Below are positions 33,500-61,661 of a DNA stretch of 64,000 nucleotides, one piece after another. The stretch comes from Rhodospirillales bacterium Ga0074136 (GTDB taxonomy: Bacteria > Pseudomonadota > Alphaproteobacteria > Acetobacterales > Acetobacteraceae), in the NCBI GenBank assembly GCA_001464375.1, contig LNEW01000220.1:1228-65227 (forward strand), in the 5' to 3' direction. A program made the translations under genes and the position numbers. The notes under the pieces were generated by a model that was given only the letters and a program-made list of their open reading frames with translations, was not told the DNA's origin and searched no databases. Positions within the stretch are counted from its first letter, which is position 1; each line of letters opens with the position of its first letter.

Positions 33500-34875
33500 G
33501 GCACCGGCGTCGTGGTGACCATGATCTGCCCGACCGGGCGCGTGGTCAGCCGGGCCGCGGGGCGCACCGTCTCCGGCGCTACCACGTGGAAGTCGAAGCG
33601 GCGGAACAGCCGCGCCACGAGCAGCACGGTTTCGACCTGCGCAAAGGCCGCGCCGGCACACACGCGGGGGCCGATCCCGAAGGGGATGTAGGCGCCGGTC
33701 GTCATCTCCGCCTCGCGCGAGGCATCGAAGCGGTCGGGGTCGAAGACGTGCGGGTTGCGCCAGTAGCTCTGGTGGCGGTGCAGGACCCAGGGCGCCACCA
33801 TGACCAGCGCGCCGCGCTTCACGCGGTAGCCGTCGAGCGACGTCGCCACGTTCGCCACTCGCGGCAGGAAGGTGATGGGCGGATACAGCCGTAGCGTCTC
33901 GCGGAAGATGTTGCGGATGAACGGCAGCTTGCGCGTGTGCTCGAAGGTGACGGGCCCATCGCCGCATACCGCATCCACTTCCCCGCGCAGGCGCGCGACC
34001 AACGCGGGCTGTATGGCCAGTATATAGAACACCCAGGTCAGAGCGCTGGCGCTGGTCTCGTGCCCCGCCAGGAACAGCACGCCGAGCTGGTCGATCAGTT
34101 CCTCGCGCGTGAAGGCACGTCCCTCACCGTCGCGCGCTTCGATCACCGCCTGGCAGATGTCGTCGAAGGACGCTCCGGCGGCGAGGTGCGTGTCGAGCAG
34201 CGCACCCAGGTGCCCGCGGATCAGCGCGCAGGCGTCCAGCACATGCTGCTTCTGCGGAATGCGCGTCCAGGCGCGATCCAGGATCAGGCGGCGGATCTCC
34301 ACCTGCGCGACCGAGCGTTCGAAATCGGTGAAGGCGTCGAAGACCTCGTGCGCCACCTGGCTTTCGAGGCTGGTCGAGAACACCGTGCGGCAGATGATGT
34401 CGGCCGTGAGGTGGCTCATCATCAGGTCGAGCGAGAACGGCGCGGTGCTGCGCGCCAGGGTTTCCTCGGTCGCCGCCACGCCCGCCTCCATCGCGGGGAA
34501 GGCGCGGTTCACGCGCATCATGGTGAGCGCCGGGTCGATCATGGCGCGCTGGCGCCGCCAGGTATCGCCGGAGGAGACGAAGATCGAATCGCCGATCAGC
34601 GGGTCGAGCGCTTCCACCATCAGGTCGGATTTCGGGAAGATGCCCTCGGGATCGGCCAACACATGCCGCACCAGATCGGGGCGATTGACGATGATGGTCG
34701 ATCGGCGCGACCAGCCGAGCGGGCCGATCGGCATGCGATAGGCCTCGGCGGGCAGCAGGCCCAGCAGGTTGCCTTCGCCTTCCATCATGGCGCGAATGAG
34801 AGCGATCACCGCGGGCAGCGACCGCGGGTGCGGCGGTTCGAAGGGTGCCCATGGAAGCGTGCGCGCGGCGCTCAT
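33496..34875 (-). CDS. cytochrome P450
   Basis: ORF 33496..34956, with a more likely start at MSAARTLPW (34875). I-helix FLAGHETSA, ExxR (ETLR), heme loop FGIGPRVCAG. Confidence 0.9.
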   Translation of the reverse strand: MSAARTLPWAPFEPPHPRSLPAVIALIRAMMEGEGNLLGLLPAEAYRMPIGPLGWSRRSTIIVNRPDLVRHVLADPEGIFPKSDLMVEALDPLIGDSIFVSSGDTWRRQRAMIDPALTMMRVNRAFPAMEAGVAATEETLARSTAPFSLDLMMSHLTADIICRTVFSTSLESQVAHEVFDAFTDFERSVAQVEIRRLILDRAWTRIPQKQHVLDACALIRGHLGALLDTHLAAGASFDDICQAVIEARDGEGRAFTREELIDQLGVLFLAGHETSASALTWVFYILAIQPALVARLRGEVDAVCGDGPVTFEHTRKLPFIRNIFRETLRLYPPITFLPRVANVATSLDGYRVKRGALVMVAPWVLHRHQSYWRNPHVFDPDRFDASREAEMTTGAYIPFGIGPRVCAGAAFAQVETVLLVARLFRRFDFHVVAPETVRPAARLTTRPVGQIMVTTTPVP

Positions 34876-34963
34876 GGCAGGCGCATCGAGAGCGGCGGCG
34901 CACCGCGGTTTCCTGCCCGTTTCACGGCCGTCGGGCTTCCCCTGCATCCGCGCCATTCCGTTG

Positions 34964-34985
34964 CTTGACAGCGATATCTGTCAAG
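34964..34985. promoter_or_regulatory. perfect 8-bp inverted repeat CTTGACAG-N6-CTGTCAAG in the divergent P450 / membrane-protein-crtD intergenic region (candidate operator with two opposed TTGACA hexamers)
   Basis: Read directly from the sequence: cttgacag cgatat ctgtcaag. Lies in a locally AT-richer gap. The half-sites are the same as the TGTCAA/TTGACA halves of the PpsR-type boxes further right, but in swapped order. Confidence 0.5.
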
Positions 34986-35021
34986 CCCGATTGTCGAATC
35001 AAAGCGCGAGGGCCATCGAGG

Positions 35022-35759
35022 ATGGAACTTCTCCTGTTCCACAGCCTGGTCGCCGCCCATATCGTCACGGGCGCGACGGGCGCTATCGCCTTCTGGGTGC
35101 CCGTGCTGGGCCGCAAGGGTGGCGTCAATCATCGCTGGTGGGGCCGGCTTTTCAATCGCTGCATGCTGATCACCGGCAGTCTTGCGATGGGCATGGCGAG
35201 CCTGACGCTGATCGACCCGATCGGCACGCATCCCCACCTGGAAGGGCGCTTCGACGAAGCGTTCCTGCGCGGCATCTTCGGATGGATGATGCTGACCACG
35301 GCGCTGCTGACGATCAACCTCGCCTGGTATGGCTGGCTTGCGGTGCTGAACAAGCGCGGCGGGCATGATCGCAACCGCACGCCACTGAACATCGCGCTGC
35401 AGTACATCCTGCTTGCGGCGTCGTTGAACTGCGCGCTGCAGGGCTGGCTGATCGGACAGCCGCTGATGTACGGCATCGCCGTGGTGGGTGTCGCGACGGT
35501 CGTGACCAACCTGCGCTTCCTCTGGGCGGCCGCGCCGGGGCCGACCTATTGGCTCAAGGAACACGTGAAGGCGTTGGTCGGCGCGGGCATCTCGGTCTAC
35601 ACGGCCTTCATGGCCTTCGGGTCGGTGCGCATCCTGCCGGAACTCGCGCTGCATCCGGTCATGTGGGCCATCCCCTGCGCCACGGGCATCGGCATCATCC
35701 TGTGGCACTGGCGCGCGGTGGACCGGCAATTCGCCGCGCGCCGCGCGGTCGCCGCCTGA
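35022..35759 (+). CDS. uncharacterised polytopic membrane protein (about 6-7 TM), probably co-transcribed with crtD
   Basis: Inner ATG of ORF 34845..35759: MELLLFHSLVAAHIVTGATGAIAFWVPVL... Repeated hydrophobic segments. Its stop is 6 nt before the crtD ATG. Confidence 0.7.
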   Translation: MELLLFHSLVAAHIVTGATGAIAFWVPVLGRKGGVNHRWWGRLFNRCMLITGSLAMGMASLTLIDPIGTHPHLEGRFDEAFLRGIFGWMMLTTALLTINLAWYGWLAVLNKRGGHDRNRTPLNIALQYILLAASLNCALQGWLIGQPLMYGIAVVGVATVVTNLRFLWAAAPGPTYWLKEHVKALVGAGISVYTAFMAFGSVRILPELALHPVMWAIPCATGIGIILWHWRAVDRQFAARRAVAA

Positions 35760-35765
35760 CCCTGC

Positions 35766-37295
35766 ATGGCTGAACCGCGCGTCATCGTGGTCGGCGCCGG
35801 CATGGGCGGGCTGGCCGCCGCGGCGGACCTGGCGCGGCGTGGGGCGCGCGTGACGGTGCTGGACCGTGCATCCGCGCCCGGCGGCAAGATGCGCCGCGTC
35901 GAGGTGGACGGCACCGGCATCGATGGCGGCCCGACAGTCTTCACGATGAAGTGGATCTTTGACGGCCTGTTCGGCGATGCGGGCCAGCGGGTCGAGGACC
36001 ACCTGCACCTGCACAAGGCGGAGATCCTGGCGCGACATGCCTGGCGGCGCGGCGGGCAGCTTGACCTGTTCGCCGATGTCACGCGTTCCGCCGAGGCGAT
36101 CGGCGACTTCGCCGGCGCGCGCGATGCCGCCGGGTATCGCGCCTTCTGCACGCGCGCGGCGGGCATCTACCGCACGCTGGTCGGGCCGTTCATCGCGTCG
36201 GAACGGCCTTCGCAACTCGACCTGGTGCGGCGCATCGGCTTCGCGCATGTCGACAGCCTGGTGCGCACGTCGCCTTTCGCCACGCTCTGGAACGCACTGG
36301 GCGATCACTTCACCGACCCGCGGCTGCGGCAGTTGTTCGCGCGCTACGCCACCTATGTCGGGTGTTCGCCCTTCCTGGCGCCGGCGACGCTGATGCTGAT
36401 CGCGCATGTGGAACAGGATGGCGTTTGGCTGGTGAAGGGGGGCATGCGGCGCGTGGCGGAGGCGGTGCGCAGCCTGGCGGAAGGCCAGGGTGCAACCTTC
36501 CGCTTCGACGCCGAGGTGCGTCGCATCCTGGTGGCGCGCGGCCGCGCCGCCGGCGTCGAGCTGGTCGATGGCGAACGCATCGAGGCCGATGCCGTGGTGT
36601 TCAACGGCGCGCCGGATGCTCTGGCGGCGGGGCTGCTGGGCGACGCCGCCCGCCCCGCGACCGAGCCCGTGCCGCGCGAATCCCGCACGCTCTCGGCCGT
36701 GACGTGGTGCGTGCACGCACCAACTGACGGCTTCACGCTCGATCACCACAACGTCTTCTTCGCCGAGGACTATCAGGCGGAGTTCGAGACCATCTTTCGC
36801 CGCCGCAGCATCGTTCAGGCGCCCACGGTCTATATCTGCGCGCAGGATCGGGGCGGTGCGGATCGCCCTGCCCCGGGCGCGCGCGAACGCCTGCTCCTGC
36901 TGGTGAACGCGCCGCCGGATGGCGACCGCGCGCCAATGGATGAAGCGGCAACGGAAGCCCATGCCGCGCGCGCTTTTGCCGTGCTGCGCGACTGCGGCCT
37001 GACGGTACGGCGCGAGGACGGCGCGGCGGTTGTCACCACGCCCGCCGGCTTCAATGCGCTGTTCCCGGCGACAGGCGGTGCGCTGTACGGACGGCTCGGC
37101 CATGGCTTCAACGGCAGTTTCGCACGACCGGGCGCGCGCAGCGCGATCCCCGGGCTGTATCTCGCCGGCGGCGGCGTGCATCCAGGGCCTGGCGTGCCGA
37201 TGGCAACGATGTCCGGGCGGCTCGCGGCGGCGCGGCTGCTGGAGGACCGCGCCGGGCGGCGGCGCAGCGTCATCGCGATGAAGGTCGGGCGGTAG
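35766..37295 (+). CDS. crtD: hydroxyneurosporene/methoxyneurosporene 3,4-desaturase
   Basis: 509-aa ORF: MAEPRVIVVGAGMGGLAAAADLARRG (FAD motif). Phytoene-desaturase-family C-terminus GLYLAGGGVHPGPGVPMA. CrtD-like rather than CrtI-like overall. Confidence 0.85.
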   Translation: MAEPRVIVVGAGMGGLAAAADLARRGARVTVLDRASAPGGKMRRVEVDGTGIDGGPTVFTMKWIFDGLFGDAGQRVEDHLHLHKAEILARHAWRRGGQLDLFADVTRSAEAIGDFAGARDAAGYRAFCTRAAGIYRTLVGPFIASERPSQLDLVRRIGFAHVDSLVRTSPFATLWNALGDHFTDPRLRQLFARYATYVGCSPFLAPATLMLIAHVEQDGVWLVKGGMRRVAEAVRSLAEGQGATFRFDAEVRRILVARGRAAGVELVDGERIEADAVVFNGAPDALAAGLLGDAARPATEPVPRESRTLSAVTWCVHAPTDGFTLDHHNVFFAEDYQAEFETIFRRRSIVQAPTVYICAQDRGGADRPAPGARERLLLLVNAPPDGDRAPMDEAATEAHAARAFAVLRDCGLTVRREDGAAVVTTPAGFNALFPATGGALYGRLGHGFNGSFARPGARSAIPGLYLAGGGVHPGPGVPMATMSGRLAAARLLEDRAGRRRSVIAMKVGR

Positions 37296-37308
37296 CCCGG
37301 GGCGCGCG

Positions 37309-38811
37309 TCAGGCCGTCCTGACGAAGGCCGCGCCTGCCGGCACCACCTGGTCGAGCAGCTTGGCCGAGGAGATCACCCCCGGCACGCCGGCGCCCGGAT
37401 GCGTGCCCGCGCCCACCAGGAACAGGTTCGCCACTTCCTCGCTGACATTGTGCGGGCGGAACCAGGCGCTCTGGAACAGTTGTGGTTCAAGGGCGAAGGC
37501 CGCGCCGTTCACCGAGAGCAGTCGGTCGCGGAAATCCTGCGGCGTCATGACGCGGGAAGTCACCAGCGCCTCGCCCAGGCCGGGCAGCACGGTGTCCTCC
37601 AGGCGCTTCTGGATCGCGGCGCGATAGGGCTCCGCCTTCGTTGCCCAATCCGTGCCGCTGCCCAGATGCGGCACCGGCGCCAGCACGTAGAAGGAATCGC
37701 AGCCCTCCGGCGCCAGCGACGGATCGGTGGCCGAGGGCCGGTGCAGGTACAGGCTGAAATCGTCCGACAGGTGCTTGCGCGTGAAGATGTCGCGCAGCAA
37801 TTCGCCGTAGCGCGGGCCGAGCACCATGGTGTGGTGATACACATCCTCGTAGCGCCGCTTCGTGCCGAAATACCAGACGAACAGGCTCATGGAGTACCGC
37901 GCGCGCGCGATCTTGCGGTCGGTCCAGCGGCGCCGCTTGTGGTGGCCGAGCAACTTCGAATAGGTCCAGGCCACGTCGGCATTCGAGACCACGATGTCGG
38001 CCGCGATCCGCTCGCCCGATTCCAGCGTCACGCCGGTGGCGCGGCCCTGGTCCACCTCGATGCGGGCGACCTCGGCATTGCAGCGCAGCGTGCCGCCCAA
38101 CCCATCGATCAGCCCGACCATGCCCTGCACCACCGCCCCCATCCCGCCCATCGCGTAGTGCACGCCGTGCATGCGTTCCAGATGCGCGATCAGGCAGTAG
38201 TAGGCCGTGGTGGTCAGCGGGTTGCCGCCGATCAGCAGCGGATGCTCATTCGAGAAGTAGTCGCTGACGCGCGAATAGACCGTGCGGTAGCCCTGCAGCC
38301 GGATCATGTCCGGCGCCGCCTTCAGCAGCGTGCCGAGGCGATGGAACGGGCGGTCGGCGAGCTCCTCGAAGGCGACCTTGTAGATGCGCTCGCTCTCGAG
38401 GATGAAGCGTTCGAAGCCGGCCAGGTCCTCGGGCGCGATGCGGCGGATCTCGGCGCGCGTCGCCTCGATGTCGGCGGAACAGCGCATCACCGTGCCGTCG
38501 TCGAAGCGGATGAAGTAGAACGGGTTCATCTCCCGCAGGTCGACGTCATCCGACAGACGCCGTCCCGCCAGCGCCCACAGTTCCTCGAGCAGGTAGGGCG
38601 CGGTGATGATGGTGGGGCCGGCATCGAAGGTGAAGCCGTCCTGGCGGAACACATAGGCGCGCCCGCCCGACGCATCGAGCTTCTCCAGCACCGTCACGCG
38701 CCAGCCGCGCGCACCCAGGCGGATCGCGGCAGCCAGGCCGCCGAAGCCGGATCCGATCACCACCGCATGCGGGCGTGTGTCGCGGGGTGTCTCGTTGCCG
38801 TCGCGCGCCAT
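37309..38811 (-). CDS. crtI: phytoene desaturase (apparently carrying an 8-aa internal deletion)
   Basis: 500-aa ORF: HAVVIGSGFGGLAAAIRL...GGRAYVFRQDGFTFDAGPTIIT...SLFVWYFG...FSLYLHRPSATDPSLAPEGC...NLFLVGAGTHPGAGVPGV. See the finding on the missing LRQAFSFH block. Confidence 0.9.
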   Translation of the reverse strand: MARDGNETPRDTRPHAVVIGSGFGGLAAAIRLGARGWRVTVLEKLDASGGRAYVFRQDGFTFDAGPTIITAPYLLEELWALAGRRLSDDVDLREMNPFYFIRFDDGTVMRCSADIEATRAEIRRIAPEDLAGFERFILESERIYKVAFEELADRPFHRLGTLLKAAPDMIRLQGYRTVYSRVSDYFSNEHPLLIGGNPLTTTAYYCLIAHLERMHGVHYAMGGMGAVVQGMVGLIDGLGGTLRCNAEVARIEVDQGRATGVTLESGERIAADIVVSNADVAWTYSKLLGHHKRRRWTDRKIARARYSMSLFVWYFGTKRRYEDVYHHTMVLGPRYGELLRDIFTRKHLSDDFSLYLHRPSATDPSLAPEGCDSFYVLAPVPHLGSGTDWATKAEPYRAAIQKRLEDTVLPGLGEALVTSRVMTPQDFRDRLLSVNGAAFALEPQLFQSAWFRPHNVSEEVANLFLVGAGTHPGAGVPGVISSAKLLDQVVPAGAAFVRTA

Positions 38812-47382: not shown

Positions 47383-47426
47383 TGTCAGCGTAGAATGACG
47401 TAAATTACTGTCAAGCTATTCTGACA
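47383..47426. promoter_or_regulatory. bchC promoter region with two PpsR/CrtJ-type palindromes 8 bp apart
   Basis: Perfect TGT-N12-ACA at 47409..47426 (TGTCAAGCTATTCTGACA) and a near-perfect one at 47383..47400 (TGTCAGCGTAGAATGACG). Strongly AT-rich gap. TTGACA lies inside the upstream palindrome when read on the minus strand. Same architecture as the Rhodobacter bchC promoter. Confidence 0.75.
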
Positions 47427-49555: not shown

Positions 49556-49573
49556 TGTCAACTTAATCTGACA
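49556..49573. promoter_or_regulatory. PpsR/CrtJ-type box upstream of crtE
   Basis: Perfect TGT-N12-ACA: TGTCAACTTAATCTGACA in the AT-rich part of the 275-bp bchJ-crtE gap. Contains TTGACA when read on the minus strand. Confidence 0.7.
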
Positions 49574-49741: not shown

Positions 49742-50329
49742 TCAGCGTGCCTCGAAGATGCAGACTGGCGCGCCGCAGGCCTCGCACTCCGTCTCCACAA
49801 CCTGCGTCGCCGGATGCACCAGCGCGCGGAACAGCCCCGCGAAGGTCGCGGCGTAATAGTCGCAGACCGGCGCCTGCGCGTGCACGCCACGCGCGAGCGG
49901 GCCGCCCGCGATGCTGAAGCGCACCGCGCGTCCAGGCAGAACGGCGAATCGTCCGCTGCCGGCGAAGGTCCAGGCATGCCGCCCGATTGCCATCAGCAGG
50001 ATCCGTGCAGCCCATCGCGCGGGCAGGCGCGGCAGCACCTGGCGCATCACAGGCGGGATGCGATGCGCGAGCAGATAGTCCGCGGTACGCCGCCCGGCAT
50101 CCGCGGCGATCACCGCGGCTTGGCCGGCCGGCATCACGCCGCGCAGCGCGGCATGCAGGGCAACGACTTCGCCCTCGTCCACCATGCGCTCGGGAGGGGA
50201 CTCCAACCGCTCCAGGAGCCCCGCGCGGCGGAACACAGCCAGCGTGTCCGCATGTCCCCGCAGCGCATCCAGCGACTCCGCCAGGCGCGTCACGGCATTG
50301 GGGCCGATGCGTGCAGTGGCGCCCGACAT
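49742..50329 (-). CDS. bchJ: bacteriochlorophyll synthesis protein BchJ (V4R domain)
   Basis: 195-aa ORF: RIGPNAVTRLAESL...VALHAAL... with C-terminal Cys cluster CDYY...ECEACGAPVCIFE. Directly follows bchE. Confidence 0.8.
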   Translation of the reverse strand: MSGATARIGPNAVTRLAESLDALRGHADTLAVFRRAGLLERLESPPERMVDEGEVVALHAALRGVMPAGQAAVIAADAGRRTADYLLAHRIPPVMRQVLPRLPARWAARILLMAIGRHAWTFAGSGRFAVLPGRAVRFSIAGGPLARGVHAQAPVCDYYAATFAGLFRALVHPATQVVETECEACGAPVCIFEAR

Positions 50330-50333
50330 CGCG

Positions 50334-51992
50334 TCAGTCCCCCTGCAGCGTGACCCTTTCGCGCGGCGGCGTCATCGCATCCATCTGCGCTTCCGTCAGT
50401 TGATCCGAACCACCGCCACAGGCACGCACCTCGGCATTGGCCGCCGGGATCTTCACCTTCGGGCGATGCATGGTCTTCCACATCGCGTTATGCGGCGCGC
50501 GCGCGGCTTCGGTGGTCAGCGTGCGCGATGCGTCGAAGTGGAAATCGACATTCTTCTTCGACTGAGGCCCCCAGTAGCCGACCTTACCGAGGTCGTAGAA
50601 GGTCCGCTGAAAGCCGGATTTCGCGAAGGCCCACAGGCAGCCCAGCATGTACTTCCGCTTCACCTTGTCGCGGATCCACGGGTAGCCCAGGAAGGTCTTG
50701 CGCAGGTAGAAGCGACGGTAGTTGTGCATGGTGCGATCAAGCAGCGTGGCGCGGTCCATCGCGTCCGGCTTCATGATCGGCGTGACGAAATTGTACTTCG
50801 AGAAGTCGAACACCTCGACCTTGTCGCCGAGTTCCTTGAACAGGTCATTGAACGGCCAGGGCGTGTACATGGCCCAGTTGGCCATGTCCGGATTCCAGTC
50901 GAGCGCCATGCGGTAGGTCTCTTCCAGCGTTTCCGGCGTCTCGTTCTCGAGCCCGACGATGAACTGCGCCTCGGCGACGATGCCGTTCTGGCGCAGCAGC
51001 TGGATCGCCTTCTTATTCTGCGCGACCGTGGTCTCCTTGTTGAAGCGGTCGAGCTTCAACTGTGCCGCGGCCTCAGTGCCCAGCGAGATGTGGATCAGCC
51101 CCGCCTTCCGGTACAGCGGCAGCAGCGCCTCGTCGCGCAGGATGTCGGTCACGCGGGTGTTGATGCCCCACAGCACGGGCAGGTTGCGCTCGATCAGCGC
51201 CTCGCAGAATTCGACGAACTTCTTCTTGTGGATGGTGGGTTCCTCATCCGCCAGGATGAAGAAGCCGACGCCGTGGTTACGCACCAGATCCTCGATCTCG
51301 TCGACGACCTTCTTCGGGTCGCGCACCCGGTAGTCGCGCCAGAATTTCCACTGACTGCAGAAGGAACAGGTGAAGGGGCAGCCGCGCGCGAGGTTCGGGA
51401 TCGCCACGCGCGTGTTCATCGGGATGTAGATGTACTTGGACCAGTCGAGGATGGCCCAGTCGGCGACAATCCGGTCGACCTCCTTGATCGGCGGGCAGGC
51501 GGCGTTCGCCACGACCGTCCCGTCCTCGGCGGCGAAGGCGATGCCCTTCACGCTGGCGCGCTCGGCCGGCCAGCGGCCTTCGTCGATGCAGCGCACCAGG
51601 TCGAGCAGCACCTGCTCGCCCTCCCCGCGCACCACCACGTCGATCCATGGCGCCTCGGCCAGCACCTGCGGGTACATGAAGGTGCCGTGGATGCCCCCCA
51701 GAACCGTGACGGCCTGCGGGCAGGTCTCCTTGGCCAGCTTCAGCAGCGACTCGGCTTCGTAGATCGCGGGCGTGATAGCCGTCGCACCGATCAGGTCGGG
51801 CTTCAGTTCCGCGAGACGATCGCGCACCTGGTCATGCGTCAGGTGGTTCGTCATCGCGTCGATGAAGGTGATGTCGGTGTAGCCCGCAGCCTTCAGGTAG
51901 CCGCTCAGGTAGGCAACCCAGGATGGCGGCCAGCTGCCGGCGATCTCGGCGCCGCCGGAATGGTAGTTCGGATGAATGAGGACGATACGCAT
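50334..51992 (-). CDS. bchE: oxygen-independent Mg-protoporphyrin IX monomethyl ester oxidative cyclase (B12-binding radical SAM)
   Basis: 552-aa ORF: [14 protein letters not shown]... (B12-binding domain) and radical-SAM CxxxCxxC as GCPFTCSFC. Confidence 0.92.
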
Positions 51993-52065: not shown

Positions 52066-52083
52066 TGTCAATCTACGTTGACA
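52066..52083. promoter_or_regulatory. PpsR/CrtJ-type box upstream of bchE, overlapping the crtB stop codon
   Basis: Perfect TGT-N12-ACA: TGTCAATCTACGTTGACA (also TGTCAA-N6-TTGACA). The crtB TGA stop is at 52070..52068, inside the box. Confidence 0.7.
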
Positions 52084-53120
52084 GTTGACACATTGAAGAG
52101 GCGGCGATCGCCCTCGCGGTCGATCTGGTCCATCACCTCCAGCGCCCAGACCAGGCGCGAGCCCCAGCCGCGCGGGATCAGCCCGCGCGGACGGGGCGAA
52201 GCGGCAACCGCGTCGACCAGGTAGGATGCCGCCGCGCAGGGCGGCTCCCCTGCCCCGTGACGGCGCCCGACCAGCGCGCCGGCGGCGCGCGCCAGCAGCA
52301 CCGCCTTGCGCCAGCCCGGCACCACGGCGCGGCGGCTGATGGAATCGAACCCGTTGCGCGCCACCTCGCGGCCGATCTCGGCATAGATCACGCGCGCGGC
52401 GCCGATTCCCGCGCGGCAGTCGCGCGGCAGCAGCGCGATGCCGGCGCCCGCGCGCGCGTAGTGCATGTCGGCCTCCGCCAGGAGCCGCGCGGTCAGCCGC
52501 CCGATCGCCGGCGTGAAGCGAGGCGCCGCCAGGAATTCCTCGGGCGCGATACCTTCCGCCCGCAGCCAGGACAGCGGCAGGAACAGCCTTCCCTCGCGCG
52601 CATCCTCGCCGATGTCGCGCGCGATGTTGGTCAGTTGCATCCCGAGGCCGAGGTCGCAGGCGCGCGCGATCGCGTCGGTGTCGCGCACGCCCATCAGCAG
52701 CGTCATCATCGCGCCCACGGTGCCGGCCACGCGCGTGGCATAGGCTTCGAGAGCGGGCATGTCCTCGTAGCGCCGCCCGACCGCATCCCAGGCGAGGCCC
52801 TCCAGCAGCGCCCCCGGCAAGGTGCGCGGAATGCCGAAATGGTGCACCACCGCGGCGAAGGCGCGATCGACCGGGTCATCCTGCGGATCGCCCGCATAGG
52901 CGGCATCGAGCCGCGCGACCAGGCGCTCCATCGCCGCCTGCTTGCTCTGCGACAGGTCGATCTCGTCGTCCGCGACACGGCAGAAGGCATAGAGCGCGGC
53001 GGCCGGTGCCGCGATCCAGCGCGGCAGCAGCATCGATGCCGCGTGGAAGGTTTTCGACCCACCCGCCAGCAGGTGCCGGCAATGGGCGAGGTCGGACTCG
53101 GCAATCCGGAACCCGGTCAT
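52068..53120 (-). CDS. crtB: phytoene synthase
   Basis: 350-aa ORF: squalene/phytoene synthase motifs YAFCRVADDEID and GMQLTNIARDIGED. ATGA overlap with the upstream DUF3422-like gene. Confidence 0.93.
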   Translation of the reverse strand: MTGFRIAESDLAHCRHLLAGGSKTFHAASMLLPRWIAAPAAALYAFCRVADDEIDLSQSKQAAMERLVARLDAAYAGDPQDDPVDRAFAAVVHHFGIPRTLPGALLEGLAWDAVGRRYEDMPALEAYATRVAGTVGAMMTLLMGVRDTDAIARACDLGLGMQLTNIARDIGEDAREGRLFLPLSWLRAEGIAPEEFLAAPRFTPAIGRLTARLLAEADMHYARAGAGIALLPRDCRAGIGAARVIYAEIGREVARNGFDSISRRAVVPGWRKAVLLARAAGALVGRRHGAGEPPCAAASYLVDAVAASPRPRGLIPRGWGSRLVWALEVMDQIDREGDRRLFNVSTVNVD

Positions 53121-54406
53121 GCTTCCTCCCGTTCCATTCGCCGTCTCACGCGGCGCGTGGCAAAGAACACCGCCGCCGCCACCAGCGGCACGGCCAGGCC
53201 GATCACCACGTCGTCGCGGATCGGCACGCGGCTATCCGACAGCGCCTTGGCGGCATAGGCGATCAGGCCGACGACGTAGTAGGTGATGGCCGCGACCGAG
53301 AGTCCCTCGACCGTCTGCTGCAGCCGCAATTGCTGACGCGCGCGCCGGTCCATCGACGCCAGCAGCGCCTGGTTCTGGCGTTCGCGCGTGAGGTCGACGC
53401 GCGTGCTCAGCAATTGCGTCGCGCGGGCGACGCGTTGGGAGAGCATCTCCTGCCGCTGCGCCATCACCAGGCAGGTGTTCATGGCGGGCGCGAGGCGCCG
53501 CTCGGTGAATTCGCGCACCGTCTGCAGGCCCTCGATGCGGCCCTCGCGCAGGTCCTCGATGCGCTGGCGCACGATCTCGTAATAGGCGGCGGCGGCGGAG
53601 AAGCGGTAGCGGTTGCGCGCCTCCCCGCTCTCGGTCTCGGCGGCCAGGCGCGTCAGCCGGTCGAGCAGCACCGGCTCATCGTTTTCCCCGCACGCGACCA
53701 GCGCATCGGCGACGGCCGCGAGTTCGCGCTCATGCGCGGCAAGCACCGGGGAGAGTTCGCGCGCCAGCGGAAACGCCAGCAGCGCCATGACGCGATAGGT
53801 GTCGATCTCGAGCAGCCGCTGCACGATCCGCCCGGCCTGGCGTTCGCCGGTGCCGCGGTCGATCAGCAGGAACCGGCTGAAGCCGTCGGGCTGGATGCGG
53901 AAATCCGTGATGGCGGTGGCGCGCCCGGCGCTGACCTCGGCACCGATCAGATGGTTGCCGGCAAAGTAGCGCGCCGACAGCGCCGCGAGGTCGAGCGGCG
54001 CACCGTCATCGGCCACCAACGCCACCTGCTGCGCGGCGATGACCCGCCCAGGCAGCGCGGCCAGCCAATCGGCCGGCAGGACGTTCACGGCGGTGGTCGC
54101 GAAGGGGTCCGCCGCCACGCCGCGCACGATCACCATGAAGCGGCTGAATTCGGTGTGGCGTTCCCATTTCAGCCGGAAGGGACCGAAATCGGCGCTGTAA
54201 TGCGCCGCCCCGGCCGGGGGGGGCGGCGCGCCGAAACGCCGCGCGAGGTCCTGCACCGCGGCCAACGCCTGGTCCCGCGGCGCACCTTCCGGGGGGATAA
54301 GCGCGAGGTGCGAAATGCGACTGGGCGGTGTGAGTGCCTCGGGCGGGCGGGCATGGACCTCGTCGTTGAGCTCGGCGCGCAGCGGATGCGAGGGCGGGAT
54401 GCTCAC
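53117..54406 (-). CDS. DUF3422-like membrane-anchored protein (large soluble N-domain, long helical stalk, two C-terminal TM helices)
   Basis: 429-aa ORF, GTG start overlapping the bchO stop (GTGA): MSIPPSHPLRAELNDEVHARPPEALTPPSRISHLAL... matches my memory of the DUF3422/COG4949 N-terminus. C-terminus has GLSVAAITYYVVGLIAYAAKAL and VVIGLAVPLVAAAVFFATRRV. Family assignment not verified. Confidence 0.8.
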   Translation of the reverse strand: MSIPPSHPLRAELNDEVHARPPEALTPPSRISHLALIPPEGAPRDQALAAVQDLARRFGAPPPPAGAAHYSADFGPFRLKWERHTEFSRFMVIVRGVAADPFATTAVNVLPADWLAALPGRVIAAQQVALVADDGAPLDLAALSARYFAGNHLIGAEVSAGRATAITDFRIQPDGFSRFLLIDRGTGERQAGRIVQRLLEIDTYRVMALLAFPLARELSPVLAAHERELAAVADALVACGENDEPVLLDRLTRLAAETESGEARNRYRFSAAAAYYEIVRQRIEDLREGRIEGLQTVREFTERRLAPAMNTCLVMAQRQEMLSQRVARATQLLSTRVDLTRERQNQALLASMDRRARQQLRLQQTVEGLSVAAITYYVVGLIAYAAKALSDSRVPIRDDVVIGLAVPLVAAAVFFATRRVRRRMEREEA

Positions 54407-55287
54407 GGCTCGGCCATCTCCGGCTGCAGCAACCGCAGCAGCAGCGCCGCCGTCAGGTCAGGCCGTTCCTCATGCGCCAGGTGGCCGAGGCCGGGCAACG
54501 TCTCGATGCGCGCCCTGGGCAGGATCTCCTGGACGCGGCGCGCCTTGGCGGGCGGGATCGTCCGGTCGTTGGCGCCGACCACCAACAACAGGTCGGGGGC
54601 CAACCGCGGCAGGTCGCGCAGCAGCGGCCGCAGGTCCCAGTTCGCCATCATGCGCAGCGCGCCGGAGAGATGCCCGGCCCGACGGAACAGCCGCGCGTAG
54701 AGATCGACCCCGCGGGCATCGATGTGCGAGCCGGTGTCGCGCAGCAGCCGTTCCGCCACCTCGCGGTTCGCCGCGCGCCAGGCGAACAGCTTCGGCACGA
54801 AGGGCAGTCCGACCAGCAGCCGCGCGGCCCGGGTGAAGAAGGCGGCGTGCTCACCGCCCAGCGGCGTCAGCGCGCCGTTCAGGCTGACCACGCAGCGCGG
54901 CGCGACGCGACCGTCCAGCACCATGCGCAGCGCCACCGCGGCACCCGCGGAATGCCCCACCACCAGATCCGGCTTGACCTCCAGCGTGGCAAGCAGCGCT
55001 TCGACCAGCCGTGCCATGCCCGGCAGCGCCAGCCCCGGGTCTCCGGGCATGCCGGTGAAGCCATGCCCGGGCAGGTCGGGCGCGACCACGGTAGCGTGCG
55101 GCGCCAGCAGCGGCAGAACGTCGCGCCAGGAATGCGTGGCCGCCGCGGTGCCGTGCAGCAGCAGGACCACCGGCCCCTGCCCCGCCACCTGGACGTGCCA
55201 GTCGATGCCGCCGGCCCGCAGGAAGCGGCTGCACTCCCTGTTCGGCCAGTCGCGGCCCTCGATCGGCCAGGCGGGACGGTCGCTCAT
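54403..55287 (-). CDS. bchO: alpha/beta hydrolase BchO
   Basis: 294-aa ORF following bchD. LLLHGTAAATHSW, nucleophile elbow GHSAGA, C-terminal GLGHLAHEE. Confidence 0.85.
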   Translation of the reverse strand: MSDRPAWPIEGRDWPNRECSRFLRAGGIDWHVQVAGQGPVVLLLHGTAAATHSWRDVLPLLAPHATVVAPDLPGHGFTGMPGDPGLALPGMARLVEALLATLEVKPDLVVGHSAGAAVALRMVLDGRVAPRCVVSLNGALTPLGGEHAAFFTRAARLLVGLPFVPKLFAWRAANREVAERLLRDTGSHIDARGVDLYARLFRRAGHLSGALRMMANWDLRPLLRDLPRLAPDLLLVVGANDRTIPPAKARRVQEILPRARIETLPGLGHLAHEERPDLTAALLLRLLQPEMAEP

Positions 55288-55290
55288 CTC

Positions 55291-57045
55291 TCAGGCCGCC
55301 GCATCGCGCACGGCGTCGGAAAGCCGTGCGGCATCGGCCATGGGCAGCGGCAGGTAGCGCGCGCCCATCGCCGCGGCGAGGTCCCTGGCGAATTGCTGCG
55401 GCCGCGGCGCGGTATCGACCAGCAATGCCGGCACGGCGGCGATGCGCAGCGGCTTCGCGGCATCCAGCGCATCGGTTTCCGCCTGCGCACGGCCGCCCGT
55501 GCCATCGCGCGCGACATTGGCGCGGCCATCGGTCAGCAGCACCAGCAACGGCGTGCGGCCGGCCCGGCGGCAGGCCTCGACCATGCCACGCGCCGCATCG
55601 AGCCCGGCGGCGAGCGGGGTACCGCCGCCGCCTGGCAACCCGGCCAGCGACCGCTTCGCGCGCACCAGCGAGGCCGTCGGCGGCAGCAGCACCTCGGCGC
55701 CACGCCCGCGAAAACCGATCAGCGCCACCTTGTCGCGCCGCACGTAGCAATCGGCCAGCAGCAATTCGACCGCGCCCTTGGCTTCGGAGAGGCGGTGCAT
55801 GGCCGCGGAGCCGGAGGCATCCACCACGAAGATCGCGGTGGTCTCCTGCGGTGCATCGAAGCGGCGCAGGCGAATGTCCTCCCGCTTCACGAGCAGCCGC
55901 GGGCCGCCGGCACGCCCGCGGCGGCGGATCGGCTGCCAGGGGGCGGCGGCGCGCAACGTCTCGACCAGGGCGAGCCTTGCGCCGGCGCGCAATTCGCCCT
56001 GCCGCGTGCCGGCGGGGCGGCCACGCAGCGGCGTGGCGTGGCGTGCCCCGGCCCGGCCATCGGGCGACGCGCGCCGCGCCGCATCACGCAGCCCGGCGCC
56101 AAGCCCGGCCAGCAGCCCTTCCGGCAGCACGGCGCGCGCAGCATCCAGCACGCGATCCTCGAGCGGCGCGTCGGTGCTCTCGCCCTTGGGCGCATCCTGC
56201 GTGTCGCCCTGCTCGGGTGGCGGCGGTTCCTCGGCCGGCGGCGTATCGGCGTCGGGCATGCGGGTCGCGCGCGGGGCCAGCACCAGGCGGGCGGCAAGGG
56301 CGGCGTCCTCCGCCAGCACGGTGTCGCGCCCGGCCAGCGCGGCAGCGGCGATGGCGACGCGCTGCGCCAGCATCGGCGCGCGCAGCGAGGCGATGCCCAG
56401 CGCCACCGCAGCGCCGCACAGCGCCTGCGTCACGTCGTGCGGCACCGTCACGCTATCCAGCCGCGCGCGCGCCGCCGCGATGTCGGGCAGGGTGCCGGCG
56501 GGTGCCGGCGGCAGCGGCATGATGTGGAAGGCGAGACGGTCGCGCAGCGCGGCGGCGACGCCCTCGTCCTCGATACCCTCGTCCAGCGCGACCAGGCCGA
56601 AGCGCGCCGGCAGGCGTCGCGCCAGGCCATCGCGTTCCAGCGCGACCTCGCGCGCATCCATCACCGCGGCCATGCGCGCGGCCATGCCGGGTTCGGCGCG
56701 TTCCGCCATCGCCAGCAGCAGCACCCCGCCATCGGCTTCGGCCAACACGCCGCGTTCGGCCACCGGTCGCCCCGCCGCGAGCGTGGCCGCGAGATCAAGC
56801 CCGCCGAGCAGCCGGCTGTCCGGCACCGAGGCCGGCATCCGGCGCCACGCGCAGCCCTGTGGCAGCGCGCCGCGCAGCAGCGCCAGCCAGCCGTCGCGTT
56901 CCGGACCGGGTGCCGCCCGCAGGACGGCGCCGCCAAGCCCGACCGGATCAACCGCCAGCAGCAGCGCCGCGGCACGCTGGTCCTGAACCGTGGCCGGGTC
57001 CGGCGCCGCGCGCGGCGGGGCGCGCCCGTCGCCGGCGGCGCTCAC
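55291..57045 (-). CDS. bchD: magnesium chelatase subunit D
   Basis: 3' part of ORF 55291..57261. GTG at 57045 overlaps the bchI stop (GTGA). Degenerate AAA-like N-domain, Pro/acidic linker (PPAEEPPPPEQGD), C-terminal vWA domain with MIDAS DASGS. Confidence 0.9.
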   Translation of the reverse strand: MSAAGDGRAPPRAAPDPATVQDQRAAALLLAVDPVGLGGAVLRAAPGPERDGWLALLRGALPQGCAWRRMPASVPDSRLLGGLDLAATLAAGRPVAERGVLAEADGGVLLLAMAERAEPGMAARMAAVMDAREVALERDGLARRLPARFGLVALDEGIEDEGVAAALRDRLAFHIMPLPPAPAGTLPDIAAARARLDSVTVPHDVTQALCGAAVALGIASLRAPMLAQRVAIAAAALAGRDTVLAEDAALAARLVLAPRATRMPDADTPPAEEPPPPEQGDTQDAPKGESTDAPLEDRVLDAARAVLPEGLLAGLGAGLRDAARRASPDGRAGARHATPLRGRPAGTRQGELRAGARLALVETLRAAAPWQPIRRRGRAGGPRLLVKREDIRLRRFDAPQETTAIFVVDASGSAAMHRLSEAKGAVELLLADCYVRRDKVALIGFRGRGAEVLLPPTASLVRAKRSLAGLPGGGGTPLAAGLDAARGMVEACRRAGRTPLLVLLTDGRANVARDGTGGRAQAETDALDAAKPLRIAAVPALLVDTAPRPQQFARDLAAAMGARYLPLPMADAARLSDAVRDAAA

Positions 57046-58145
57046 GGCCCGAACAGCTCGCTGACCGCGCGCTCGACACGGGTGGAGGAGGACGTCTCGT
57101 CGAGCGGATTGCGCCGCAGGCGGTGGCGCAGCGCGGGGCTGGCCACGGCGCGCAATTCGGCATCGCCCACCACCTGCCGGCCCTCCAGCGCGGCATGGGC
57201 ACGCGCGGCCCGGATCAGCGTGAGCTCTCCGCGCAGGCCATCGGTGCCCAGCGCGATGCACAGCTGTGCGGCGCGTTCCAGCGCGGCATCCGGCACCTCG
57301 ATGCTGGCGATCATCGCGCGTGCGGCAAGGATGCGGCGCCGCAGCTTCGCTTGCTCCTTATCCCACGCGGCGCAGAAGGCGGCATGGTCGCGTTCGTAGG
57401 AATCGCGACGGCGTATCACCTCGATGCGCGTCGGCAGGTCCATCGGCGTGCGGACCTCGACGCACAGGCCGAAGCGGTCGAGCAGCTGCGGGCGGAGTTC
57501 GCCTTCCTCGGGATTGCCCGACCCCACCAGCACGAAGCGCGCCGGGTGACGGATGGAGATGCCCTCGCGCTCCACCAGGTTCTCGCCCGAGGCCGCGACA
57601 TCGAGCAGCAGGTCGACCAGGTGGTCCTCGAGCAGGTTCACCTCGTCGATATAGAGGAAGCCGCGATGCGCGCGCGCCAGCAGGCCGGGCTCGAAGGCCT
57701 TCACGCCGTCGGCCAGCGCACGCTCGATGTCGAGCGCACCAGCCACGCGGTCCTCCGTCGCGCCGAGCGGCAGGTCGACAACCGGCACCGGCACCTCGAT
57801 CCCGCGCAGGCGCGGCTTGGTGCGGCAGGCATCGCACAGCGCGGCGGCGTCGCCGGGGTCGCAGCCATAGCGGCAGCCCTCGACCGCCTTCATCGGCGGC
57901 AGCAGCGCGGCCAGCGCGCGTACCGCGGTCGACTTGCCCGTACCGCGGTCGCCCAGCACCAGCACGCCGCCGATGCTGCCATCGACGGCGGCGATCAGCA
58001 GGGCGCGCAGCATCTCCTCCTGCGCGACGATCGCCGCGAAGGGATAGGGCGCACGGCCCGCGGGCACGCCGCGCGCCGGTTTCGAGCGGGTGGAGACGGG
58101 GTTCGCATCGCCACCCCGGCCGTGATCGCCGGGTACGGAATCCAT
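57042..58145 (-). CDS. bchI: magnesium chelatase ATPase subunit I
   Basis: ORF 57042..58178, with the likely start MDSVPGD at 58145 (ATGA overlap with the hemA stop). Walker A GDRGTGKST, Walker B YIDEVNLL, LDRFGL. Confidence 0.95.
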   Translation of the reverse strand: MDSVPGDHGRGGDANPVSTRSKPARGVPAGRAPYPFAAIVAQEEMLRALLIAAVDGSIGGVLVLGDRGTGKSTAVRALAALLPPMKAVEGCRYGCDPGDAAALCDACRTKPRLRGIEVPVPVVDLPLGATEDRVAGALDIERALADGVKAFEPGLLARAHRGFLYIDEVNLLEDHLVDLLLDVAASGENLVEREGISIRHPARFVLVGSGNPEEGELRPQLLDRFGLCVEVRTPMDLPTRIEVIRRRDSYERDHAAFCAAWDKEQAKLRRRILAARAMIASIEVPDAALERAAQLCIALGTDGLRGELTLIRAARAHAALEGRQVVGDAELRAVASPALRHRLRRNPLDETSSSTRVERAVSELFGP

Positions 58146-59356
58146 CAGGCGGCCCGGCGGAGGCTGAATCGGGCCCACACATCCTCCAGCGACGCGACCA
58201 GGTGGTCCATGTCGGCATCGCTGTGCACGGGCGATGGGGTGATCCGCAGCCGCTCCGTGCCGCGCGGCACGGTGGGGTAGTTGATCGGCTGCACATAGAC
58301 CCCGTGCTCGTCCAGCAGCAGGTCCGAGATGTTCTTGCAGATGACCGGGTCGTAGACCATCACCGGCACGATGTGGCTGTCGTTCTGCAGGTGCGGCACG
58401 CCCACCGCGTCAAGGCGGCGGCGCAGCGTGGCGGCGCGTTCGTGCAGCAGCGTGCGCTCGACGTTGCTCGCCCGCAGATGCTGGATCGCGGCGCGCGCGC
58501 CGGCCGCCACCGCCGGCGGCAGCGCGGTCGAGAAGATGAAGCCCGAGGCGAAGGACCGCACGAAGTCGCACATCGCGTGCGTGCCGGCGATGTAGCCGCC
58601 GATCACGCCGAACGCCTTGGCCAGCGTGCCCTCGATGACCGTGAGGCGATGCGATGCGCCGTCGCGTTCCGTGACGCCACCGCCGGTCGGGCCGTACAGG
58701 CCGACGCCGTGCACCTCGTCGCAATACGTCATGGCGCCGAATTCCTCGGCCACGTCGCAGATGTCGTGGATCGGCGCGATGTCGCCGTCCATCGAGTAGA
58801 CGCTTTCGAAGGCCACCAGCTTCGGCGCGCGGGGGTCGAGCTCCGACAGCACGCGGCGCAGGTCGACCACGTCGTTGTGGCGGAACAGGCGGCGTTCGGC
58901 GCGCGAGTGGCGCATGCCCTCGATCATCGAGGCATGGTTCATCTCGTCGGAGATGATGACGCAGCCCGGCATGCGCGAGCCCAGAGTGGACAGCGACGCC
59001 CAGTTCGACATGTAGCCGGAGTTGAACAGCAGCGCCGCTTCCGTCCCGTGCAGCGCGGCGAGTTCCTGTTCCAGCAGCACATGCGCGTGGTTGGTGCCTG
59101 AGATGTTGCGCGTGCCGCCGGCACCGGCGCCGTAGCGGTCGAGCGCATCATGCATGGCGGTAAGCACCTTGGGGTGCTGGCCCATCCCGAGGTAGTCGTT
59201 CGAGCACCACACCGTCACCTCGCGCGCCTTGCCGGCGTCGTGGCGGATGGCGCGGGGGAAGGCGCCGGCCTGGCGCTCGATGTCGGCGAAGACGCGGTAG
59301 CGGCCCTCGCGCCGGAGACCGTCGAGCTGCGCGCGGAAATAGGCTTCGTAGTTCAT
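58145..59356 (-). CDS. hemA: 5-aminolevulinate synthase
   Basis: Inner start [23 protein letters not shown] of ORF 58145..59401. GNDYLGM-type motif (SNDYLGM), PLP-lysine region [17 protein letters not shown]. Confidence 0.95.
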
Positions 59357-59465
59357 GGCGTCACCCCCCGGGTGCTCTGTTGCGCCTTGGTTGACCAGCA
59401 TGCGCGACGGCGCGGCGCGATGCCGTATCGGTCCCGGTTCCGGCCCGGATTGTCACTGACCTGGA

Positions 59466-60557: not shown

Positions 60558-61661
60558 CTACCAGGCCGGCGCCAGGCGGGCGTCGGCGGGCAGTTCGTGC
60601 CGGCGCGGCCGTCGCAGGAAGGCGCGCAGGAAGGTGGCGCCGGCCGCGACCGTCAGCCCGGCCCGCTTCACGCCGCCCAGCACGCCGCCCTGCGCCTTCG
60701 CTGCGCCAATGGACTCCGCCAGCGTGCGGAGCTTCTCCATGTCACGCAGGAAGCCCGGGTGGTCGATGTCGAGCGTCGCCGGGAAGACCTGGCGGCAGAT
60801 CTCCTCGGTGATGCGGAACACGCGCATGTCGTAGTCGGTCGGTGTCATGCCGAGCGCCTTGTGGAATTCCGGCCGTGCATGGTCGCGCACGTACATCGTG
60901 GCGAAGACCGCGAGCTGGAAGAAGCGGCACCACCAGACATTGCCGCCACTGACCAGCGACGGGTTTGCGCGCATCAGCAGGGCGAAGGCCTCGCCGTGGC
61001 GGAACTCGTCGTTGCACCACTTCTCGAACCACTGGAAAATCGGGTGGAAGCGAAGCTCGGGGTGCTTCTCGAACTGCCGGAAGATGGTGATGTAGCGGGC
61101 GTAGCCGATCTTCTCCGACAGATAAGTGGCGTAGAAGATGAACTTCGGCTGGAAGTAGTGGTACTTCTTGGCGCGCGTGAGGAACCCCAGGTCCACGCCG
61201 ACGCCGATATCCTTCAGGCTGTCGTTGATGAAGCCGGCATGGCGGCTTTCGTCACGGGCCATCACGGAGAACAGCTCCTTGATGTCGGGGTTGGTCACGC
61301 GCTTCTTGATCTCGGCATAGAGCACGCAGCCGGAGAATTCCGCCGTGACGCTGCTCACCAGGAACTCGACCAGTTCCTTCTGCAGGCCGGGCGGCAGGCT
61401 GCTGAGGTCGAACTTGTCGAAATCCTCGTTGCGGACGAAGTGGCCCTTGTTGGGGTCGGCGCGGAACTCGTCCATCAGCCGGTCCCACTGCACGCGCAGC
61501 GGTTCGACATCGACCTTGTCCATGGCCGCGAAATCGGTGGTGTAGAAGCGCGGGCTGAGCGCCGTCTCGGTCATCGCCATCTTCGTGGCGACGGCGGAGG
61601 ATCCCTGCTTGGTCGTGATCAGCCCATCATCCGGGCCGCCGAGGACGAGCGCTTCCATCAC
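60558..61661 (-). CDS. acsF: oxygen-dependent Mg-protoporphyrin IX monomethyl ester cyclase
   Basis: 367-aa ORF: SPRFYTTDF... and di-iron ExxH motifs ([20 protein letters not shown]). GTG 61661 or ATG 61658 overlaps the upstream stop. Confidence 0.93.

Follow-up and report, generated by a model that had tools for sequence, protein, structure and literature searches.

Conserved linkage of a DUF3422 membrane-protein gene to the bchI-bchD-bchO operon in the photosynthesis gene clusters of many purple bacteria

The present study analyzes a gene for a membrane protein of the DUF3422 family that lies between bchO and crtB in the photosynthesis gene cluster of Rhodospirillales bacterium Ga0074136, a member of the Acetobacteraceae, on a 64,000-nucleotide stretch of contig LNEW01000220.1 (positions 1,228 to 65,227; this whole stretch is hereafter the window). 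The open reading frame (ORF) occupies positions 53117..54406 of the minus strand, begins with GTG and codes for 429 amino acids followed by a stop codon. Read on that strand, bchO ends in ...GAG CCG TGA and the DUF3422 ORF starts with GTG AGC ATC CCG, such that the bchO stop codon is overlapped by the GTG start in the tetranucleotide GTGA at 54403..54406; at the other end, ...GAA GCA TGA and the crtB start ATG ACC GGG share the tetranucleotide ATGA at 53117..53120. A sequence-only reading of the window had reported this ORF and both overlaps, and the ORF list and our own minus-strand reading agree with it. Shine-Dalgarno-like GGAG and GGAGG motifs precede the DUF3422 and crtB starts, each lying within the preceding gene. 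The protein matches Pfam PF11902 (DUF3422) with E 2e-163 and 544.9 bits, compared with a gathering score of 25 for the family hidden Markov model, and the match spans residues 6-424 of 429 and profile positions 2-418 of 418, i.e. the full length, which settles the family membership that had been proposed. The G+C content at third codon positions (GC3) is 0.88, compared with 0.70 for the window, and the neighbouring genes are alike in this respect. A frame over-called in GC-rich DNA was considered and is excluded by codon-position GC and the huge set of homologues. The gene encodes a genuine inner-membrane protein of an uncharacterised family: a scan of NCBIfam returned no model for DUF3422, the family label at JGI is "uncharacterized membrane-anchored protein", and the searched literature contained no mention of DUF3422, COG4949, PF11902 or that label together with bchO, in keeping with the earlier statement that no described function of the family in photosynthesis clusters was known. 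In comparative papers on photosynthesis clusters, bchIDO appears as a conserved block and additional genes as grey "hypothetical" boxes.

The neighbours of the gene, all on the minus strand, are those of a bacteriochlorophyll and carotenoid operon. Directly upstream lies bchO (54403..55287), which encodes an alpha/beta hydrolase and matches TIGR03056 above its curated cut-off (E 1.5e-94), preceded by bchD (55291..57045; 584 amino acids from a GTG start; NCBIfam PRK13406, E 3e-224), bchI (57042..58178; TIGR02030, E 2.2e-153) and hemA, the gene for 5-aminolevulinate synthase (58145..59401; TIGR01821, E 1e-193). Directly downstream lies crtB, the gene for phytoene synthase (52068..53120; PF00494, E 3e-70), which also scores E 2.9e-119 with NF045921, under the curated cut-off of that model. 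BchE, BchJ, AcsF and PuhE were identified among the cluster proteins as well, and the full minus-strand order is puhA-puhB-puhC-acsF-puhE-hemA-bchI-bchD-bchO-DUF3422-crtB-bchE-bchJ-crtE-crtF-bchC-bchXYZ-pufBALMC. The bchI stop codon is overlapped by the bchD start in a further GTGA, and bchO starts 3 nucleotides past the bchD stop. Because all of these junctions overlap or are spaced by 3 nucleotides, the stretch from bchI to crtB forms a single tightly packed translation unit, as had been claimed, and the junctions as read show DUF3422 to be translated from the message that also encodes BchI, BchD, BchO and CrtB, its start and stop codons overlapping those of its neighbours. The mechanical ORF list gives bchD as 656 amino acids (55291-57261, also with a GTG start), overlapping bchI by 220 nucleotides. 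The true start is almost certainly the GTG at 57045; the resulting 584-residue product fits PRK13406 positions 7-583, and the product in relatives is 578 amino acids long.

Placement of the gene was then compared across genomes. A scan of one genome per GTDB species, taken over the first 600 pattern matches, returned at least 581 relatives, of which the best 80 were kept; linkage was scored by tblastn searches in which the window's own cluster proteins served as queries, and flank lengths were then checked. Thirty-eight of the 80 loci lie inside photosynthesis clusters, 30 are clearly unlinked, and the remaining 12 are on contigs too short to place. In 28 loci bchO is directly upstream on the same strand, in the order bchI-bchD-bchO-DUF3422, which answers the earlier suggestion that clusters be surveyed for the gene beside bchO. 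These include the Acetobacteraceae Belnapia, Dankookia, Roseicella and Rubritepida, as well as Rhodothalassium salexigens, Rhodomicrobium, Aestuariivirga, Parvularcula, Hyphomonadaceae/Caulobacterales and the gammaproteobacterial Steroidobacteraceae. Seven Burkholderiales loci (metagenome-assembled genomes of Rubrivivax and Methylibium, strain AAP65 and others) have the order DUF3422-bchI-bchD-bchO, and three of the 38 have other arrangements. Direct same-strand adjacency to the bchI-bchD-bchO block was therefore found in 35 of 80 loci, drawn from Alpha-, Beta- and Gammaproteobacteria. Among the nearest relatives, whose lack of the gene would have spoken against any conserved role, hemA-bchI-bchD-bchO-DUF3422 followed by crtB or crtI-crtB was present in a relative with a 95%-identical protein (represented by three contigs), in Roseomonas alkaliterrae (78%) and in Roseomonas sp. 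CAU 1739 (62%), and the gene extends far beyond these.

The junctions themselves are informative. A single 4-nucleotide overlap is commonplace in compact GC-rich operons, but the bchO/DUF3422 overlap recurs in at least 10 of the other scanned species (loci L001-L004, L006, L009, L010, L012, L013, L017, L026, L027, L032, L043 and L061) and so is not attributable to chance; the DUF3422/crtB overlap was found in loci L001-L004. The occurrence of two different junctions with one bchIDO block in three classes argues for selection to co-express DUF3422 with the chelatase genes and not with the crt genes. In the photosynthesis gene clusters of many purple bacteria, DUF3422 belongs to the bchI-bchD-bchO operon as a conserved accessory gene, and, judged from gene order and sequence, its product is a probable helper of bacteriochlorophyll synthesis.

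Several observations weigh against a role tied to bacteriochlorophyll. On the cluster plasmids of Roseobacter litoralis, Novosphingobium capsulatum and Thiodictyon syntrophicum bchIDO is not followed by DUF3422, and the classical Rhodobacter order, which we take to be established, is bchI-bchD-bchO-crtI with no DUF3422 gene. DUF3422 is not a core gene, its presence being less than universal among bacteriochlorophyll-producing Proteobacteria, and the 30 unlinked loci of close relatives lie away from any photosynthesis gene. An explanation could be that the gene encodes a housekeeping membrane protein with an unrelated function, which became fixed next to bchIDO, travels with the cluster and has no part in pigment formation. 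The phototroph lineages without DUF3422 after bchO and the unlinked loci are both consistent with this, as is a neighbour-joining tree in which linked and unlinked copies interleave inside one large clade, and so is Roseomonas eburnea, which keeps the gene beside hemA. However, such a passenger would not account for the recurrent 4-nucleotide coupling to bchO, or for the fact that the gene has stayed adjacent in Alpha-, Beta- and Gammaproteobacteria, in each of two independent arrangements abutting the bchIDO block. Unrelated genes are otherwise nearly absent from photosynthesis clusters, where one would expect a neutral passenger to have been lost or displaced. We regard it as rather improbable.

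Two of the exceptional loci are of interest in themselves. In R. eburnea (L005, 4722-7302) DUF3422, 75% identical to the window's protein, lies 67 nucleotides after a hemA that has 86% identity to the hemA of the window, and within 6 kb of them there are no bch, crt or puf genes; the two look like either what the cluster left behind when bchIDO was lost or a hemA-DUF3422 pair of ancestral origin. In the purple sulfur bacterium T. syntrophicum (L088, 6980-8320, and L098; plasmids pTs417 and pTs485), DUF3422 and bchIDO are on different plasmids, and DUF3422 adjoins a gene for a CHAD-domain protein and the pstSCAB phosphate-uptake operon.

Regulatory signals and the wider cluster provide some context for the operon. 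A palindrome of the PpsR/CrtJ type, TGTCAATCTACGTTGACA, was found by pattern scan at 52066..52083 (plus strand), overlapping the crtB stop codon upstream of bchE, and from its sequence it is probably where the following transcription unit begins. It is one of three extended palindromes of the form TGTCAA-N6-[TC]TGACA, at 47409-47426, 49556-49573 and 52066-52083, which lie just upstream of bchC, crtE and bchE, respectively; the bare pattern TGT-N12-ACA is not more frequent in the window than expected by chance (5 found, 3.7 expected). The three sites all lie elsewhere than upstream of bchI or hemA, where no extended palindrome was found, and therefore the promoter of bchIDO-DUF3422-crtB must lie further upstream. 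Consensus scans for an internal promoter or terminator gave nothing exceeding the shuffled expectation. The position of hemA between puhE and bchI, with its 3' end overlapping the listed bchI ORF by 34 nucleotides, is kept as the order puhE-hemA-bchI in loci from Roseomonas, Belnapia, Dankookia, Roseicella and Rubritepida, and in the closest relatives the interval from puhE to hemA has a called ORF of 38 codons that overlaps both genes (L001, 4960-5076; L002, 2090-2206). The window encodes both the aerobic (acsF, 60558-61661) and the anaerobic (bchE-bchJ, 49742-51992) system for cyclization of Mg-protoporphyrin monomethyl ester. In the 95%-identical relative a divergent DUF2189 gene (L001, 12356-13147) replaces bchE-bchJ between crtB and crtE, an indication that the anaerobic cyclase was gained or lost recently. 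Just beyond the crt end of the cluster are genes for a GMC-family oxidoreductase and a cytochrome P450 (29795-31435 and 33496-34956), adjoining crtC/crtD/crtI-like genes at 34845-38811; these two are possible candidates for carotenoid-modifying enzymes.

The structure of the protein was predicted as an AlphaFold2 monomer from an alignment of 47 sequences, with a mean predicted local distance difference test (pLDDT) score of 88.3 and a predicted template modelling (pTM) score of 0.72. The N-terminal alpha/beta domain comprises residues 1-187 (53846..54406, pLDDT 88-90, with support from alignment conservation) and is placed in the cytoplasm; within it, residues 29-183 are beta-rich and form two beta-alpha-beta-beta-beta units, and when the domain was re-predicted alone its pLDDT was 89.5. 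It is followed by a helical bundle, residues 188-296 (53519..53845), with helices at 188-209, 212-238 and 241-286 and then a conserved loop. Residues 297-390 (53237..53518) are modelled as one continuous helix of 94 residues, a stalk that runs into the first transmembrane helix (TM1, at about 369-390), and a loop of 7 residues joins it to the second (TM2), which with the basic C-terminal tail (...RRVRRRMEREE) takes up residues 398-428 (53123..53215), the helix ending RRVRRRMEREEA. The sequence-only reading had described a helix-rich stretch, two C-terminal transmembrane helices and a basic tail, all of which are present, and a single soluble N-domain of about 330 amino acids, which the model replaces with an alpha/beta domain of about 185 residues and a helical bundle of about 100. 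An N-in/C-in topology follows from the absence of a signal peptide together with the basic tail, and the model supports a protein with both termini in the cytoplasm, where the alpha/beta domain and bundle would be carried on a long stalk helix that continues as TM1.

Conservation, examined in 138 representatives that are 35-61% identical to the query, is concentrated where this stalk enters the membrane. Residues invariant across the family and present here are E86, Y204, R268, Y275 and E367. The densest conservation is at the stalk end and the first turns of TM1, at Q359, Q363, T365, V366, E367, G368, L369 and S370, then Y376 and Y377; E367 is conserved in 100% of the representatives and Q359, Q363 and S370 in 99%. 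The motif TVEGLS, residues 365-370 (53297..53314, minus strand), thus lies at the cytoplasmic entry of TM1 and contains the invariant glutamate. Along residues 297-390 conservation is periodic with a peak at 100 degrees, as in an alpha-helix, such that one face is conserved (N345, L349, M352, A356/R355, Q359, Q363, E367, S370 and Y377); TM2 shows no such periodicity, and TM2 and the tail are poorly conserved except for P407. Periodicity in the stalk and TM1 with none in TM2 is what one would expect, by comparison with CorA, if the stalk and TM1 were internal in a homo-oligomer and TM2 peripheral. The N-domain carries two conserved motifs, HPxRxELNxExHARP (residues 7-21) and WERHTEF (81-87). 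The first is the most conserved motif of the N-terminal part and is modelled at low confidence (pLDDT 57-66), and residues 7-21 may become ordered only against another subunit, a ligand or a partner.

The proposal that the protein has the body plan of CorA, ZntB and Mrs2 stands in part. What stands is the order of the parts. CorA, the Mg2+/Co2+ channel of Thermotoga maritima and Methanocaldococcus jannaschii, likewise has a cytoplasmic alpha/beta domain, a helical "willow" bundle, a stalk continuous with TM1, a short loop, TM2 and a basic tail, shares the N-in/C-in topology, and is conserved with helical periodicity in TM1 and not in TM2; the predicted DUF3422 protein has the two C-terminal transmembrane helices, the long cytoplasmic stalk helix continuous with TM1 and the basic C-terminus that characterize CorA/MIT-type proteins. 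A Foldseek search of 350,542 PDB chains returned CorA (from both of these species), CmaX or Mrs2 as all of the best 21 matches, with probability up to 0.99, CmaX (7nh9) ranking 3rd and CtMrs2 (8q8q and 8q8p) 13-14. ZntB and CmaX, which are Zn2+-transporting relatives of CorA, and Mrs2, the Mg2+ channel of mitochondria, share the plan and show that the architecture tolerates different metal specificities.

What does not stand is kinship by sequence, and the structural resemblance is weaker than had been proposed. The Foldseek matches are marginal (best E 1.5e-3, TM-scores of 0.2-0.3, or 0.17-0.24 when query-normalised, and root-mean-square deviation about 20 A). The N-domain alone, searched against PDB, matched no CorA domain, no informative ligand-binding fold and nothing significant, its best E being 0.02, to small ferredoxin-like or roadblock-like folds. 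Searches of all PDB chains with the protein (phmmer) and with profiles of 47 and 138 sequences (hmmsearch) gave nothing meaningful and no CorA, and PF01544 (CorA) matched none of the 47 members at E<=10, where only noise families appeared. A CorA profile was made from the T. maritima sequence, verified against PDB, with 44 homologues collected and aligned; hhalign of the 138-sequence DUF3422 profile against this 44-sequence profile gave a probability of 0.4%, and the sole aligned stretch, TM1 on TM1, was not significant. The Gly-Met-Asn (GMN) motif is absent, as had been noted before, TM1 ending ...GLIAYAAKALSDSRVPI without G-M-N, and the periplasmic loop, the site of the selectivity filter in CorA, is unconserved and indeed the least conserved part of the C-terminal region. 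ZntB, CmaX and Mrs2 match Pfam CorA and keep a G-x-N motif, whereas DUF3422 does neither and its TM-scores with them are 0.19-0.24. The signature element is also at the opposite end of the helix: in DUF3422 the invariant glutamate of TVEGLS marks the cytoplasmic mouth, in contrast to the asparagine ring at the outer, periplasmic mouth of CorA. The DUF3422 protein is about 80 amino acids longer than CorA, and its conserved cytoplasmic residues are rich in arginine whereas the CorA funnel is acidic. "CorA body plan" is thus fair as a description of architecture, and membership in the CorA superfamily is not established.

The family at large extends well beyond phototrophs. More than 7,900 homologous proteins were found at E<=1e-5 (among 8,000 candidates), and at E<=1e-3 there were 2,697 clusters of 50%-identity representatives, nearly all of 420-470 amino acids and of one architecture. 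Many members are in organisms that are not phototrophic, including Rhizobium, Sinorhizobium, Burkholderia, Variovorax, Meiothermus and enterobacterial plasmids. Across the 30 unlinked loci, clustering of flanking ORFs and Pfam scans found no recurrent neighbour; the flanks held LysR regulators, an acyl-CoA synthetase, TldD, a TonB receptor, a BCCT transporter and others, and the contexts in Rhizobium, Sinorhizobium, Paracoccus, Meiothermus and the Thiodictyon plasmid were likewise unrelated. A second recurrent setting is seen in a subfamily with 38-40% identity to the window's protein, which resides in mobile formaldehyde-detoxification islands with the layout frmR-frmA-(gfa or VOC)-DUF3422-fghA-FAD oxidoreductase-uvrA, frequently accompanied by a ZIP transporter, gshA and cydAB in the vicinity. 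The hosts are plasmids of Escherichia coli and other Enterobacteriaceae, Acinetobacter and Comamonas, with a rearranged form in Shinella (plasmid copies at L087, 6935-8269; L089, 5935-7266; L092, 4435-5766; and L093, 4468-5742). These copies resemble the window's protein in Pfam family, length, transmembrane layout and embedding among genes for soluble enzymes, but differ in their context of glutathione-dependent formaldehyde oxidation and in forming an outgroup to the clade that holds the photosynthesis-cluster copies.

The findings for the family have two key implications. First, the abundance in non-phototrophs and the formaldehyde-island subfamily indicate a basic activity that is not confined to chlorophyll chemistry or Mg chelation, and make the earlier idea of a role in Mg2+ or Zn2+ supply to the chelatase less specific. 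Secondly, this activity is useful beside at least two different sets of soluble metal-dependent enzymes, since Mg-chelatase requires Mg2+ and the class III alcohol dehydrogenase and Gfa are zinc enzymes.

The interpretation that we find best supported is an oligomeric, CorA-like inner-membrane channel or transporter that is made together with the chelatase and serves the metal side of Mg insertion. DUF3422 would form a homo-oligomer, probably a pentamer, in which the conserved face of the stalk and TM1 would line a central conduit with a ring of Glu367 at its cytoplasmic mouth, and the N-domain, rich in His, Glu and Arg, might be a gating or ligand-sensing module. Translational coupling would have the channel made stoichiometrically and in step with BchI, BchD and BchO, and the channel would tune the flux of a divalent cation, or its local availability, with Mg2+ as the obvious candidate; the protein could also hold the chelatase at the membrane as Mg enters protoporphyrin IX. 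Taken as a whole chain this interpretation is tentative, and we would sooner doubt than accept it in full. A bolder form would make DUF3422 either a new branch of the pentameric channels of CorA type or an analogue of them, in which a cytoplasmic glutamate ring replaces GMN as a novel selectivity element, and a dedicated membrane partner of Mg-chelatase in many purple bacteria that feeds or meters metal or docks the enzyme; this we consider unlikely. A pore for porphyrin export was also considered and would seem implausible, given the size of a CorA-like pore.

The conserved linkage might instead reflect a membrane scaffold or regulator that is not a channel at all, in which the transmembrane hairpin is a mere anchor and the protein anchors or regulates Mg-chelatase (BchH/I/D and perhaps BchO), with protoporphyrin or Mg-protoporphyrin handed to membrane-associated steps. 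It would then be a functional analogue of a GUN4-like accessory factor, and to our knowledge purple bacteria have no GUN4 equivalent. A scaffold would suit the close translational coupling with bchO and the fact that the gene is linked to the I/D/O block in two gene orders, as well as a large conserved cytoplasmic domain whose predicted Arg-rich surface and His/Glu motifs could bind a carboxylate-bearing ligand or a partner; the high conservation of an N-terminal motif that is modelled with low confidence and the JGI label of a membrane-anchored protein point the same way. A passive anchor, however, would have no need for the feature that is most conserved, namely TM1 and its cytoplasmic entry with an invariant charged residue at the membrane boundary. 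The family is moreover common in organisms without a chelatase, and the formaldehyde-island subfamily would require a wholly different partner. GUN4 of oxygenic phototrophs is soluble and has no structural or sequence relation to DUF3422, such that the sole parallel, drawn from background knowledge, would be in possible function, as a non-catalytic associate of Mg-chelatase that modulates its Mg2+ dependence or membrane association. We judge a scaffold to be an unlikely explanation.

A further possibility is that the conduit serves a solute other than a metal, such as a small anion, an organic acid or protons, and relieves a by-product or a stress. In the islands the solute could be formate from S-formylglutathione hydrolase, and in the photosynthesis cluster a product possibly tied to the BchO hydrolase. 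A hydrolase of alpha/beta fold, FghA or BchO, is a neighbour in both conserved contexts, conserved arginines dominate the stalk and bundle (R303, R304, R318, R325, R328, R336 and R355), and a cation filter of the GMN type is lacking. Set against this, FghA and BchO are from different hydrolase families, the Burkholderiales copy adjoins bchI and not bchO, the Shinella copy is not beside fghA, and the invariant residue at the pore mouth is a glutamate, which favors cations or protons. We also know of no by-product of Mg chelation that needs export. A conduit for a non-metal solute seems to us quite improbable.

For 30 years, work on Mg-chelatase has dealt with a soluble enzyme of three subunits, and mostly with that of Rhodobacter, which lacks the gene described here. 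That DUF3422 is a family was already catalogued, and its architecture resembles the CorA type without the defining motif or sequence similarity. The novelty lies in how widely it is linked to the Mg-chelatase operon and in its additional linkage to formaldehyde islands, which together give two very different genomic entry points to a family of some 2,700 clusters (at 50% identity). The chlorophyll-specific interpretation is tempered by the wide distribution of the family and its dispensability in several phototroph lineages. If the protein is a channel, the CorA architecture would extend to a family without the defining GMN filter. In the bolder form given above, the paralogues of the formaldehyde islands would do the equivalent job for metal-dependent detoxification enzymes, and docking of the chelatase would place the first committed step of bacteriochlorophyll synthesis on a membrane-bound complex. 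Since several of the carriers are available as cultured isolates, the function is open to direct testing. A co-translated membrane protein accompanies the chelatase genes in Acetobacteraceae, several Hyphomicrobiales, Rhodothalassium, Hyphomonadaceae, Steroidobacteraceae and Burkholderiales, and this linkage points to an accessory role, so far unrecognised, where the haem and bacteriochlorophyll pathways diverge; that role may be metal supply, metal sensing or membrane docking.

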